Shown: positions 5,368 to 60,037, counted from the stretch's first letter. The stretch: DNA of 64,000 nt from an uncultured Gammaproteobacteria bacterium (GCA_964561035.1 CAZLNR010000001.1:40577-104576); one strand, 5' to 3'. The notes: generated by a model from the letters alone, not told the origin. A program made the numbers and translations.

Positions 5368-5389
5368 TTGTATAGATTAATCTATACAA
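5368..5389. promoter_or_regulatory. Operator-like palindrome P1: TTGTATAGAT-TA-ATCTATACAA
   Basis: Perfect 10-bp arms with a 2-bp spacer, immediately upstream of the HTH gene start. Confidence 0.55.
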
Positions 5390-5441
5390 ATATAGCATAA
5401 TTTCAGCTTTTTGTCAAGTATCTGTGGTAGTGTAGGGGCTC

Positions 5442-18531: not shown

Positions 18532-19251
18532 ATGTTAAGTTATTTTTGGGCAACGTATCTCTATCAGCCGTTATTTAACGCGCTTATTTGGATTTATCTA
18601 AATATTGCGGAAAGAAATATGGGGTGGGCTGTTGTTTGGCTCACTATTTTTTTACGTATTATTTTATTGCCGCTTACATTTATTTCTGAGCGTGATGCAA
18701 TTCGCGAAAAAGAAGTGCAGGAACAGGCAAAACAAGCTGCTCGAGCATTTAAAAATGATGTTATAGCGCAAAAAGAAGAAATCAGGCGTGTGATGAAAAA
18801 ACACCATGTGTCACCGTGGGCAAAAGTAGTGTTACTTGGCTTCCAGATACTGGTGTTTGTACTTTTGTATCAGGTGTTTATTCGCGGTATTACCGGAGAT
18901 CGCATAATTAAATTGTTGTATTACTGGATAGATTTTCCAGGCAAGATTAATACGGATTTTTACGGTACTAATATCGGCGTGCACCATAACGTATTTTGGT
19001 CGGGTGTTGTGGCAATCTATTTATTTTTTTCAATTTATCTTAACGAGTTTTCTCAAAGTAAAAAGGATAGCGCCAAAATGACATTTTTGTTTTTATTTCC
19101 GCTATTTACGTTTTCCATTTTATGGTATTTGCCAATGGTTAAATCGTTATTTATTTTGACAACCATGATTTTTTCTGATACTATTACATTCATCAGAAAA
19201 ACGTTATTTTCAGAAAAAAAATCAAAACCGAAAGCCGCCGGCCATCATTAA
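18532..19251 (+). CDS. yidC: Membrane protein insertase YidC/Oxa1 family (short form)
   Basis: QPLFNALIWIY..GWAVVWLTIFLRIILLPLT is characteristic of the YidC core; multiple TM helices. Confidence 0.65.
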   Translation: MLSYFWATYLYQPLFNALIWIYLNIAERNMGWAVVWLTIFLRIILLPLTFISERDAIREKEVQEQAKQAARAFKNDVIAQKEEIRRVMKKHHVSPWAKVVLLGFQILVFVLLYQVFIRGITGDRIIKLLYYWIDFPGKINTDFYGTNIGVHHNVFWSGVVAIYLFFSIYLNEFSQSKKDSAKMTFLFLFPLFTFSILWYLPMVKSLFILTTMIFSDTITFIRKTLFSEKKSKPKAAGHH

Positions 19252-28323: not shown

Positions 28324-29676
28324 TTAATAATTGGTCTTCCAAATACCATCCTTGGTTTTGCTTATAAAGTATAATATTTTATTTTTGGTATCTGCCTGCG
28401 CTGTATGTATTTGTTCGGCTATAAGCTCATGGCTGACCAGATAGTATGGAAATAAAATCGTGCTGCGCTGGTTCCATATAAGGGCGAGTGTGTTATATTG
28501 ATCAAGCGGCAAAACAGTATGCAGTTGTTCACCCGATCTGCTTAGCAGCTGAGGCTCTTCGCCGTCGCTATATGTCCATAATTCCCATTGCGACCATAAT
28601 AGCCACCAGTTATTATATGGCGAAACAAAGAAGTTTGTCGTGTCAATTGGATGTAGCCCGTTTTGGTTGGCGAGTATGGCTTTTTTTCCATATAAATTGC
28701 CGATGAGTGCTGTATTTCCTTTGACTTTTAAAAGAGCCGGTTTGTTGCTATTTGGCTGGTCGTTGGTTGTAAAATAAGTTTTATTAACAGTTTGAACAAT
28801 AGTAGGGAAACCTAAAATATCTTTGGTTATTATATAGGCATCGGTATTGGTTGCGAATTGCAAAGCCCATAGTTCGTTTGCTTCCACAGACCAATCTAAA
28901 TATGTATTTGCGGTAACCAGCTGTGATTTATTGGTAGTCGGAGTGTATAAAAAAATCTGATTTTTTGTACTGTAATATACTTGAGGTTCGCTGGTTTGGT
29001 TCCAGATAAATTTTGTAATTGGCGTACCGGAGCCTATAGTAAATAATTTTTTAGTTTCCGCGTTTAATATGTATATCTGCGCAAACGGCTGTTCTGTCGG
29101 AGCGATGACGGCCAGGTTATTTTTTTCATCCCATGTATATTGGAAACGCAGGTCGCTGTCTAATCCGGTAATCTGGGTTTTTTCTTGAGTGCGCACATTC
29201 CATAGCCAAGTAAAAAAACCTTTATCAGTTTGAGTTGTAAATAGTATGTATGCGCCATCGGCTGATACAGAAAAGTCATTTATCGTGCCGCTTATCGCCA
29301 GTTCCAGTTTTGGTTTTTTTATTAAGCGTATTTCTTTAATATAATTTGTTTGTTTGTTTTTTACCTCTATTTCTTTGGACCAATCAATATACCCTTCGGC
29401 GCTTAGGCGGGTGTTATAAGTTGCGGGCGTGATGTTATTAAGGCGAATAGGCAATGTTTTCTGCAGTTTGATATTATTAAGGTAGGCAACCGATTCTTGC
29501 GGCTCTATATCAATACTGATTGATCCAGTTTCTTTGAGTAGGCCGTTATGCCAGTCATAGCGATAGCCGGCAGTATACATGATTAAAAGAGGGGATATGA
29601 TAAAAAAAGCGCTGATAAAAAAAATAAACATGAACTGTCTGATCGGCTTAGTGAATTTTGTTCCTGGATATTCCAT
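28324..29676 (-). CDS. Membrane-anchored beta-propeller (TolB/WD40-like) protein, unknown function
   Basis: N-terminal TM helix, then repeated W/Y-rich beta-strand blocks (..YILFTTQTDKGFFTWLWNV.., ..WNQTSEPQVYYS..). Confidence 0.5.
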   Translation of the reverse strand: MEYPGTKFTKPIRQFMFIFFISAFFIISPLLIMYTAGYRYDWHNGLLKETGSISIDIEPQESVAYLNNIKLQKTLPIRLNNITPATYNTRLSAEGYIDWSKEIEVKNKQTNYIKEIRLIKKPKLELAISGTINDFSVSADGAYILFTTQTDKGFFTWLWNVRTQEKTQITGLDSDLRFQYTWDEKNNLAVIAPTEQPFAQIYILNAETKKLFTIGSGTPITKFIWNQTSEPQVYYSTKNQIFLYTPTTNKSQLVTANTYLDWSVEANELWALQFATNTDAYIITKDILGFPTIVQTVNKTYFTTNDQPNSNKPALLKVKGNTALIGNLYGKKAILANQNGLHPIDTTNFFVSPYNNWWLLWSQWELWTYSDGEEPQLLSRSGEQLHTVLPLDQYNTLALIWNQRSTILFPYYLVSHELIAEQIHTAQADTKNKILYFISKTKDGIWKTNY

Positions 29677-58655: not shown

Positions 58656-58961
58656 ATGTACGCAGTTATTGCTACTGGTGGTAAACAATATTTGGTAAAA
58701 AATGGCGACGTGTTGAAAGTTGAAAAGCTCAAAGCTGAAGAAGGATCAACTGTTGTATTTGATAAAGTATTGTTGACTGCCGATGAAGATGGAAAAAATG
58801 TTAAAATCGGACAGCCGTATTTGGATGGTGTAACTGTTACTGCCACACTTGAAAAACAAGGCAAAGAACGCACCTTGCGCGTAGAAAAATTTAAACGCAA
58901 AGTTCGCTACCACAAAGTACACGGACAAAGACAGAGATTCAGCTTGGTAAAAATCGCTTAA
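58656..58961 (+). CDS. rplU: 50S ribosomal protein L21
   Basis: MYAVIATGGKQYLVKNGDVLKVEKL.. matches L21 throughout. Confidence 0.9.
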   Translation: MYAVIATGGKQYLVKNGDVLKVEKLKAEEGSTVVFDKVLLTADEDGKNVKIGQPYLDGVTVTATLEKQGKERTLRVEKFKRKVRYHKVHGQRQRFSLVKIA

Positions 58962-58973
58962 TACAATTAAATT

Positions 58974-59001
58974 TAAAAACCACCCTATAAAGGTGGTTTT
59001 T
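58974..59001 (+). terminator. Rho-independent terminator after rplU
   Basis: aaaaaccacc-ctataa-aggtggttttt. Confidence 0.8.
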
Positions 59002-59056
59002 AAATTACTCACAGCCAGTCCTTGACAGATATGTTGCAATATGGTAAGGTCTTTTT

Positions 59057-59362
59057 GCCTACGTAAGTAGGCTCTTGTTATCCGGTATATTCTCCCGACC
59101 CCTTAAGTGAAAAAATATTTTTCTTTTAAGGGGTCGAAGGCGAATCCGGATCAGCCTGTCGATCTCCGGCTGGGACATTGTGAGTAGCATACGGGGAGAG
59201 CCCCAAGTTTTCGTCGCAAAGCAAGGAAGAGGTGACGACTTCTTTATAAGCAGACTTCTTCATGAGGAATGCTTAAAACTTGCTGGTGCGCAGGCTCACG
59301 ATGCAGATCCAGTCCGGTCTTGGGGGTGCGGGCCACTCGCGCTCGCACCCCCCTTCTTTTTC
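59057..59362 (+). ncRNA. Candidate structured non-coding RNA (~300 nt), identity unresolved. The strand is inferred from the promoter. RNase P RNA is one hypothesis, from weak P4-like strings.
   Basis: Promoter TTGACA (59022..59027), 17-bp spacer, extended -10 TGgTAAGGT. Multiple stable hairpins follow: gcctac-gtaa-gtaggc, an 11-bp stem cgaccccttaa..ttaaggggtcg, gggg-agag-cccc, and a 9-bp GC stem gggggtgcg..cgcaccccc followed by a T-run. No convincing ORF. It sits between two terminators, in a convergent gap between rplU and recR. Confidence 0.4.
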
Positions 59363-59396
59363 TTTAAAACCTTTTTTAAAGGGTTCTAAAGAAAAC

Positions 59397-59427
59397 AAAA
59401 AATTCCGATAAGTTCGGAATTTTTTGT
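59397..59427. terminator. Terminator hairpin (serves recR on the minus strand)
   Basis: aaaattccgat-aag-ttcggaatttttt. Confidence 0.7.
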
Positions 59428-59437
59428 TTATTATTTT

Positions 59438-60037
59438 TTATTTTCCAGTTCTGTTTTTGATGGCGCTGCCAAGGGTTATTTCATCCGCATATTGCAAGTC
59501 GCTGCCCATAGGCAAGCCTCGCGCCAGCCGTGTTACAGAAATAGCGGGGTTTTTTTCTTTAATTTTTTTCTCAAGAAATAACATGGTTGTCTCTCCGGGC
59601 AAGTCGGGGTTAAAAGCTAAAATTATTTCCTTAAGCCCGGTATTTTTTTCAAGGCGCGCAAATAATTCTTTAATTTTTAATTTATCCATATCATCGCTGC
59701 CTGGCTCTATAACACCGCGCAGCACATGATAGAGGCCGCTAAAAATTCCGGTGCGTTCAATAACATGCATATCTTGCGGTTCGCAGACAATGCAAATTAC
59801 GGATTGATCTCTGTTTTTGTTTGAGCAGATAGCGCACGGATTAGTGTCGCCAAAGTCCCAGCATTGTTCGCAGCTTTTTACATTGTCTATTAACTCTTTG
59901 AGCGCCAGTGTAATTTCCGCAACTTCTTTTTTGCCGGATTTAAGCAAATAAAAAGCAAAGCGCTCGGCGGTTCGCTGTCCGACGCTTGGCAATTTGCGGA
60001 ATGCGCTAATTAAATGTTGAATTGACTTTGAGTACAT
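59438..60037 (-). CDS. recR: Recombination protein RecR
   Basis: HhH (LPSVGQRTAERFAFYLL), C4 zinc finger CEQC..CAICS, Toprim segment. Confidence 0.9.
   Translation of the reverse strand: MYSKSIQHLISAFRKLPSVGQRTAERFAFYLLKSGKKEVAEITLALKELIDNVKSCEQCWDFGDTNPCAICSNKNRDQSVICIVCEPQDMHVIERTGIFSGLYHVLRGVIEPGSDDMDKLKIKELFARLEKNTGLKEIILAFNPDLPGETTMLFLEKKIKEKNPAISVTRLARGLPMGSDLQYADEITLGSAIKNRTGK

Follow-up and report, generated by a model that had tools for sequence, protein, structure and literature searches.

The 64,000-nucleotide stretch of DNA analysed here (hereafter, the window) very probably carries a real accessory structured RNA gene in the gap between rplU and recR. As judged from searches and comparisons of sequence, this candidate gene is an orphan, lineage-restricted structured sRNA gene that lies outside every Rfam family and would represent a new one. 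The explanation that we prefer, and consider somewhat probable as a whole, is that it is an independently transcribed structured-RNA gene, carried as an optional cassette in a hotspot of Magasanikbacteria, which acts in trans via protein binding.

A predicted independent transcription unit between rplU and recR

The relatives of the RecR protein encoded in the window assigned the host clade to Candidatus Magasanikbacteria (Patescibacteria, candidate phyla radiation). The rplU gene (58656-58961, + strand) and recR (59438-60037, - strand) are convergent, as had been noted originally, and this convergent order is kept across Magasanikbacteria. The neighbouring genes within about 5 kb encode a ClpB-like AAA+ protein, a family-4 glycosyltransferase (Glycos_transf_4), a DUF192 protein, L21, RecR, YbaB, and DnaB. 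The RNA unit occupies the gap between the two convergent genes. On its rplU side, a terminator scan found a bidirectional intrinsic terminator (58970-59006) that closes rplU and forms the upstream border of the cassette; its sequence is unlike that of the single terminator found at the empty site of L001, the closest genome.

The predicted promoter of the RNA unit (59022-59050, + strand) is composed of a perfect -35 box, TTGACA (59022-59027), a 17-nt spacer, an extended -10 element, TGg (59042-59044), and the -10 hexamer TAAGGT (59045-59050), which agrees with TATAAT at three of six positions. The original prediction, made from the sequence of the window by a reader without database searches, had called this promoter near-consensus; the -35 box and the extended -10 TG deserve this description, whereas the -10 hexamer does not. 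A generic promoter scan missed the promoter because its -10 hexamer has only three of six matches to TATAAT. The pattern TTGACA-N14-TGnTAnnnT is present in three copies in the 64-kb window, as compared with 0.01 expected by chance. The other two copies, at 5389-5417 (-) and 19156-19184 (+), both adjoin ORF starts and are therefore likely to be strong promoters.

Transcription is likely to start at G59057, which lies 7 nt past the -10 box and opens the first predicted hairpin, H1 (59057-59072, + strand), a 6-bp stem with a GUAA loop. In the MFE fold, H1 is followed by H2 (59077-59155, + strand), a long and imperfect hairpin in which about 30 positions are paired and the apical stem has 12+6 bp, and then by a 3′ rod domain of about 160 nt (59161-59319, + strand) containing the helices P3, P4, P5, P6, and P7. 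P3, with about 19 bp, is the closing stem of the 3′ domain, P4 is a GGGG/CCCC side hairpin (59193-59204), P6 is a side hairpin with the sequence GAGGUG, and P7 is the apical hairpin. The unit ends in an intrinsic terminator (59322-59365, + strand), the stem of which (59322-59352) has 12 bp, including 10 G-C pairs, and is followed by a T-run to 59365. The strong hairpins reported earlier were thus borne out by the MFE helices, except that the stem given as a 9-bp GC stem is this 12-bp one.

Beyond the first terminator, alignments revealed a conserved tail (59366-59392, + strand), in which a small hairpin, AAAACCUUUUUUAAAGGGUU, is followed by CUAAAGAAAAC. The tail motif UAAAGARAAC is conserved in the window and in L003 and L006, two loci from other species, and the tail belongs to the RNA only upon read-through of the first terminator. 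The cassette is bounded downstream by a second, bidirectional terminator with a UUCCGA stem (59393-59429), which also serves recR and which all three RNA-bearing lineages possess. From these elements, the predicted RNA would be about 300 nt long (~59057-59365), or about 380 nt with read-through to the second terminator.

Folding and the absence of a conserved reading frame

The + strand of the RNA unit folds at -136.8 kcal/mol (z = -7.8), and none of 100 shuffled sequences folded as well. The - strand of the unit folds at z = -4.8, and allele B, the second allele of the unit (allele A being that of the window), at z = -7.3. The longest ORF in the unit, of 69 aa with a GTG start, crosses the terminator and is not common to allele B, in agreement with the earlier view that the region has no credible ORF. 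No ORF common to alleles A and B was found on either strand, so that a conserved small ORF, named in the original prediction among the observations that would speak against an RNA, did not emerge from the comparison of the alleles. The indels among allele B variants have lengths that are not multiples of three. The Shine-Dalgarno-like sequence GAGGUG is conserved in both alleles and, in both, is paired inside hairpin P6; the frame that follows it differs in length among the B variants and ends within a few codons in allele A. We rejected a small-ORF or dual-function reading on the grounds that the frames are not conserved, and a type I toxin-antitoxin on the grounds that the alleles have no ORF in common on either strand. 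These comparisons showed the rplU-recR unit to be non-coding as far as can be read from its alleles, without a conserved reading frame. The proposal of an independent promoter-to-terminator unit for a structured non-coding RNA is thus upheld by the promoter, the terminator, and the fold that this unit has of its own.

Filled and empty sites within one species complex

Contigs of the same species complex were gathered by exact protein sequence (RecR, L21, YbaB, and DUF192). We found that the rplU-recR gap in this complex has three states, namely, empty, allele A, and allele B. The gap is empty and 56 nt long in L161, whose RecR is identical to that of the window, and equally in L001, L174, L175, and L182, which have RecR proteins 99% identical to it and flanks with about 91% DNA identity (L174 is the same record as L001). 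L001 is without the sequence corresponding to 58988-59420 of the window, and its 56-nt gap holds one terminator. Allele A, identical to the window, was found in contigs from five samples and, with one mismatch, in one partial contig. Allele B, a family of variants in gaps of 484-498 nt, came from about thirteen samples. In L179, allele B stands in a background like that of L001, and L168 is a mosaic of an A-type promoter and a B-type 3′ domain, suggesting that recombination shuffles the RNA unit. The absence of the unit from its locus in conspecific strains speaks strongly against an essential RNA such as that of RNase P or the SRP.

Site-specific insertion was rejected for two reasons: filled and empty sites are dissimilar over the entire intergenic region, and no target-site duplication is seen. 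In other species, of the elements found in the RNA-bearing L003, its sister L008 retains the rplU-side terminator alone, and L007 retains only the UUCCGA terminator; the flanks AAAACAAAAAA and TTTTTTGTTT are common to the terminators. A deletion between the two terminators, or a replacement via the flanking genes, would fit these sequences better than a site-specific insertion.

Several contigs break at the borders of the cassette. L171 and L173 end 6 nt past rplU, L162 breaks 7 nt past recR, and the contig of L165 begins at position 59038 of the window, also at the cassette border. Such breaks of short-read unitigs are expected if filled and empty sites, or alleles A and B, coexist in one sample.

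Conservation and compensatory changes in two modules

L003 and L006, which come from two other species and whose RecR proteins are about 79% identical to that of the window, have a promoter, H1, and H2 at the same position. H1 contains one compensatory pair among the window, L003, and L006, and H1 and H2 together contain four pairs changed on both sides across the three lineages. The apical sequence of H2 is conserved as CCYUUAAGWGAAWAA ... UUUWAARGG, followed on the 3′ strand by a GGUNG-(A/C)AGG motif, and a search of 193 loci with the H2 pattern returned only window-type loci, L003, and L006. Similarly, a covariance model of the 5′ module (R1) scored 98-109 bits in the three lineages and found nothing else in 753 kb, including the window. 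Since R1 finds nothing beyond these lineages, the 5′ module is not common to the other types of cargo in the gap.

Alleles A and B show 97-100% identity in the promoter, H1, H2, and the 3′ flank. In the 3′ domain, their identity drops to about 55%, with conserved islands at GCAUACGGGGAGAGCCCCAA, GAGGUG, UAAAAC, and CACG, and both alleles fold as P3-P4-P5-P6-P7. A covariance model built from B variants only (R2) matched allele A over its full length (50.2 bits, E = 4.7e-9), with 97.6% of the cells of the R2 alignment paired. Fifteen pairs were changed on both sides, as compared with 3.2 ± 1.5 in shuffles (none of 500 reached this number) and at most one with slid partners, in a set of two deep alleles and five close variants whose alignment was fitted to the model structure and thereby favours pairing. 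Double-sided changes were found in seven of eight helices. Covariation, which had been suggested as a check on the original prediction, is thus clear, and of the three observations that together would have spoken against that prediction (no Rfam match, no expression, and no covariation), only the first was made. In the terminator stem, the B variants also show compensatory changes from G-C to A-U, at columns 289/318 and 294/313.

Model R2 gave no match on the 3′ domains of L003 and L006, which are also closed by long stems and differ in length. Hence, as far as these models reach, only the 5′ module was shown to be common to all three lineages. Taken together, the alignments and models showed a predicted RNA of two modules, a 5′ module (H1 and H2) that is conserved in sequence and a 3′ rod whose putative helices are kept by compensatory changes.

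No further homologue of the RNA was found among 80 metagenome loci. With regard to more distant RecR relatives, the gap of P0005 is empty, that of P0048 holds a 270-aa ORF, and the contigs of P0024 do not differ from L006. A neighbour-joining tree of DnaB, RecR, YbaB, and L21 shows the three RNA-bearing lineages scattered, and each carrier has an RNA-less sister (window/L001, L003/L008, and L006/L009-L010). The RNA was either ancestral to the genus-level clade and often lost or replaced, or moved between lineages by recombination.

Tests against known RNA families and mobile elements

A search of the whole window with Rfam 15 at gathering scores detected three tRNAs only, with no match on the RNA unit. 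When the threshold was relaxed to E≤10 over positions 58900-59500, only weak matches on the downstream terminator and microRNA-model noise were obtained. Searches at E≤5 of L172 (allele B) and L232 (L006 type) likewise produced only terminator look-alikes or microRNA-model noise, and 15 related loci, including L003 and L006, had no match at gathering scores. The Rfam search that accompanied the original prediction as a proposed check thus gave no match, either at gathering scores or at E≤10, and its RNase P, 6S, and SRP candidates failed even at the latter threshold. RNase P RNA was rejected since neither RNaseP_bact_a nor RNaseP_bact_b matched at gathering scores or at E≤10, 6S RNA since the Rfam 6S models had no match at E≤10, and SRP RNA (4.5S or large bacterial) since there was no Rfam SRP match. 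ARAGORN detected no tmRNA in the window, nor did Rfam at gathering scores. ARAGORN did report a tRNA-Gln(CUG) of 89 nt at 28925-29013 (+) of the window. This tRNA is probably a false positive, since the Rfam tRNA model was silent there and the sequence falls within a minus-strand ORF of 450 aa (28324-29676).

The weak RNase P-like strings pointed out earlier do exist, but they are strands of H2 and P3 and do not serve as evidence of RNase P. The CR-I-like AAGGCGAAUCCGG makes up the 3′ side of the H2 base, and the CR-V-like CACGAUGCAGAUCC..CCGG is the 3′ strand of P3. The possibility that CR-I and CR-V form the P4 of an RNase P RNA was rejected, as the look-alike strings pair with local partners in these helices. 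In allele B, the CR-V-like string reads CACGGCGACUGUCUUGUCUGG and is still paired with its changed partner. The likeness to CR-I and CR-V is coincidental, since the strings are helix strands and the CR-V-like one is altered in allele B. Overall, the profile of a housekeeping sRNA, as which the unit had been described, is contradicted by the lack of an Rfam match and by the absence of the unit at its locus from conspecific strains. The fallback offered at the same time, a lineage-specific RNA, proved correct.

As a test for a multi-copy mobile element, we searched the window for a second copy of the RNA and found none by blastn or with model R1. A blastn search against GenBank phages and PLSDB plasmids gave no match, and a scan of viral contigs with the H2-motif pattern gave 27 matches, all of which were A+T-rich and without a hairpin, that is, due to chance. 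No gene for a reverse transcriptase, Cas protein, TnpB, IscB, recombinase, or toxin was found within about 5 kb of the RNA unit, and no gene for a partner protein of the RNA is encoded within the same distance. A retron/DRT-type template RNA was rejected because a reverse transcriptase gene is absent among the neighbours within about 5 kb. An integron attC-like nature of H2 was also rejected, as no RYYYAAC/GTTRRRY core sites were seen and no integrase was called within about 5 kb. A search of the literature on ncRNAs of Patescibacteria or Magasanikbacteria found nothing relevant.

The rplU-recR gap as a site of varied cargo

The length of the gap across Magasanikbacteria is bimodal, with short gaps of 34-150 nt that hold a single bidirectional terminator and long gaps of 230-1300 nt and more that hold varied cargo. 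The protein cargo includes small membrane or secreted proteins, XRE-type helix-turn-helix proteins, and a PRA-PH/MazG-like protein. Other non-coding, well-folding cargo was found in L014/L020, L016/L019/L034, L041/L043/L055, and L030. The bimodal length and the varied protein and non-coding contents suggest that the gap is a hotspot for accessory cargo. Protein cargo in the same gap had z about 0, as compared with -8 to -12 for the RNA described here; the z-scores of the cargo of other loci were calculated with 25 mononucleotide shuffles only. At least four unrelated types of structured RNA occur at the rplU-recR locus.

An unrelated ncRNA candidate of about 320 nt occupies the same gap in L016 (4591-5024), L019 (4588-5040), and L034 (4591-5028) (minus), and also in L095 and L097. 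The 5′ and 3′ ends of this candidate join in a closing stem of 16 bp that shows compensatory changes (GCUACGGUGAC/GUCACCGUAGC vs. GCUGCGAUGUC/GACAUCGCAGU), and there was no Rfam match. Further G+C-rich non-coding cargo is present in L014 (4579-5108), L020 (4579-5478), L041 (4591-5423), L043 (4591-5046), L055 (4591-4912), and L030 (4588-4992). This cargo stands mostly behind a TTGACA-type promoter and, in the four cases folded, mostly folds well (z of about -4 to -9). L041 has two tandem promoter units, and L041 and L043 have a conserved 3′ end in common with interiors that differ.

In L002, L011, and L051, the ORF of the protein cargo is preceded by a TTGACA promoter and then by at least one hairpin, including a long one that is A+U-rich at its tip. 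This leader resembles H1 and H2, with no match to model R1, and may represent a 5′ leader design common to the clade. We also observed, in 12 loci of other Magasanikbacteria, a palindromic repeat, GUCAUUCCC-N-GGGAAUC, which is often located in or beside the gap and is absent from the window. The clearest copies extend over about 80 nt as ..CCAG ... CUGGAUUCCC-N-GGGAAUGAC. The repeat is found in L003 (4604-4675), L085 (743-808), L051 (2624-2702), and L121 (1543-1621), and also in L013, L065, L066, L080, L091, L101, L109, and L137. From its sequence, it looks like a small element of the MITE or REP type.

Discussion

In the model that we propose, the RNA would be produced constitutively from its own promoter, and the 5′ hairpin and the 3′ terminator would shield it from exonucleases, giving a stable RNA. 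It would then act in trans as a scaffold or sponge for a protein, which would contact the conserved parts of the RNA, namely, the duplex sequence of H2 and the loops around P4 and P6. Conservation is concentrated in the H2 duplex and in these loops, and the single-stranded linkers are not conserved. This pattern, in which the duplex and loops are conserved, the stems vary with compensation, and the linkers are not conserved, favours protein binding over seed-based pairing with mRNAs. Reached by exclusion, a trans-acting mechanism via protein binding is a tentative proposal that we regard as possible rather than probable. Since the RNA is dispensable, its role would be an accessory one and not a core one, and its frequent loss suggests a benefit that is weak or conditional.

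Several other explanations were weighed against this model. One of these, which we judge unlikely, is that the RNA is a base-pairing trans sRNA, or an antisense regulator of mRNAs elsewhere or of recR by convergent transcription. A stand-alone intergenic promoter-terminator unit transcribed towards recR would suit such a role, and the conserved GAGGUG and the tail motif UAAAGARAAC could be pairing sites. However, the presumed single-stranded linkers are conserved neither from allele to allele nor from lineage to lineage, the RNA shows no above-chance complementarity to the rest of the 64-kb window, and it is far bigger and more fully paired than typical seed-based sRNAs; for recR itself, two tandem terminators stand between the RNA and the gene. 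The way in which the unit varies also bears on the idea that the RNA is part of a system with an unlinked protein, as the template or guide of a reverse transcriptase or nuclease, as an antitoxin, or in anti-phage defence. Presence and absence within the species, the replacement of alleles, a site that is a hotspot with diverse accessory cargo, and the modular layout of a conserved handle and a fast-changing domain are all consistent with such a system. Nevertheless, we consider it improbable, since stems that vary with compensation around conserved loops are the opposite of a guide or specificity segment, the 5 kb or so around the unit encode no protein of the kinds searched for (reverse transcriptase, Cas, TnpB, IscB, recombinase, or toxin), and the phage and plasmid collections and viral contigs gave no match.

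Frequent loss of the unit, and the protein cargo of L002, L011, and L051 behind a similar promoter and a short and then a long hairpin, could also be taken to mean that the unit is a decaying remnant of a protein-coding cassette or mobile element with a chance fold. This is quite improbable in view of the alleles, which at 55% identity keep all the helices with 15 double-sided changes and have their conserved islands in loops, and in which no trace of a common reading frame is left; moreover, the protein cargo folds at z about 0 against -8 to -12 for this RNA. That the unit codes for a small protein, with or without a further function as an RNA, is in our view very improbable. The Shine-Dalgarno-like GAGGUG of both alleles, together with a suitably spaced GUG in some B variants, is what such a reading would build on, but the post-GUG frame varies in length among the B variants and ends within a few codons in allele A, the indels are not multiples of three, GAGGUG itself is paired in P6, and the 69-aa ORF crosses the terminator. 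There is equally little chance that the unit is a divergent housekeeping RNA (RNase P, 6S, SRP, or tmRNA) that escapes the Rfam models in the candidate phyla radiation. Its size, heavy structure, and own strong promoter and terminator would fit, the 3′ rod with internal loops is loosely 6S-like, and short RNase P-like strings are present. Against this stand the lack of an Rfam match in the window and allele B (permissive E) and at the 15 loci (gathering scores), the lack of an ARAGORN tmRNA, and the absence of the unit at its locus from conspecific strains and from most sister species. In addition, the RNase P-like strings form part of covarying helices and are themselves not conserved in allele B, and the predicted RNA, with its ~300 nt and three domains, differs from a single 6S-like rod of ~180 nt.

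The accessory, protein-binding RNA that we favour can be compared with several known systems. Orphan structured ncRNA classes that entered Rfam from comparative genomics include raiA, OLE, HEARO, ROOL, and GOLLD. Like these, the rplU-recR RNA is stand-alone, heavily structured, a few hundred nucleotides long, richer in G+C than its surroundings, supported by covariation, and restricted in lineage. Unlike them, it has no model match, is found in a few species of one genus-level clade, varies among strains of the same species, and is built of modules, the 5′ one conserved and the 3′ rod diverging rapidly. With 6S RNA (RF00013), it has in common that it is non-essential, that it has a promoter of the type of abundant RNAs, and that it has a rod-like domain with internal loops and a long closing stem; the sequestering of a protein, as by 6S RNA, is also the kind of mechanism suggested here for the rplU-recR RNA. 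However, 6S RNA consists of one rod, about 180 nt long and with a bubble at its centre, and the rplU-recR RNA has about 300 nt in three domains. Its 3′ domain of about 160 nt has internal loops that bear side hairpins, no open central bubble is predicted in it, and two extra hairpins stand on its 5′ side. RNase P RNA (RF00010 and RF00011) is similar in size class and in the two short strings resembling CR-I and CR-V, but the rplU-recR RNA has no model match and no P4 pseudoknot elements and is dispensable.

In enterobacteria and firmicutes, strain-variable sRNA genes in intergenic hotspots between core genes are a general phenomenon. The rplU-recR RNA resembles them in its core-gene flanks, its presence and absence among strains, the unrelated cargo that replaces it, and its turnover by recombination in the flanks. 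It is, however, far above typical Hfq-type sRNAs in size and degree of structure, and, unlike those hotspots, the same site holds several different large structured RNAs in this clade. One further possibility, which we put forward as speculative and rather unlikely, is that the gap is an exchange site for "RNA gene cassettes", in which a common expression platform, made up of a strong promoter, a 5′ hairpin, and a long hairpin, would serve different large structured RNAs that strains would swap, lose, and regain in the manner of accessory protein genes.

To our knowledge, almost nothing is known of the non-coding RNAs of the candidate phyla radiation, whose members have tiny genomes. A delimited RNA of about 300 nt with covariation and no Rfam counterpart adds an orphan RNA family, with a distribution that is so far narrow and comprises three species-level lineages. 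The conspecific strains with empty sites are natural knock-outs, and two deeply diverged alleles with one fold provide a ready comparative and experimental design. Other structured RNAs occupy the same gap in related species, which hints that the hotspot may trade RNA as well as protein genes and that RNA genes belong to the flexible gene pool of the clade. If the exchange of RNA cassettes is true, there would be an RNA-only layer of accessory functions, for example in phage or host interaction, in these episymbionts with reduced genomes.
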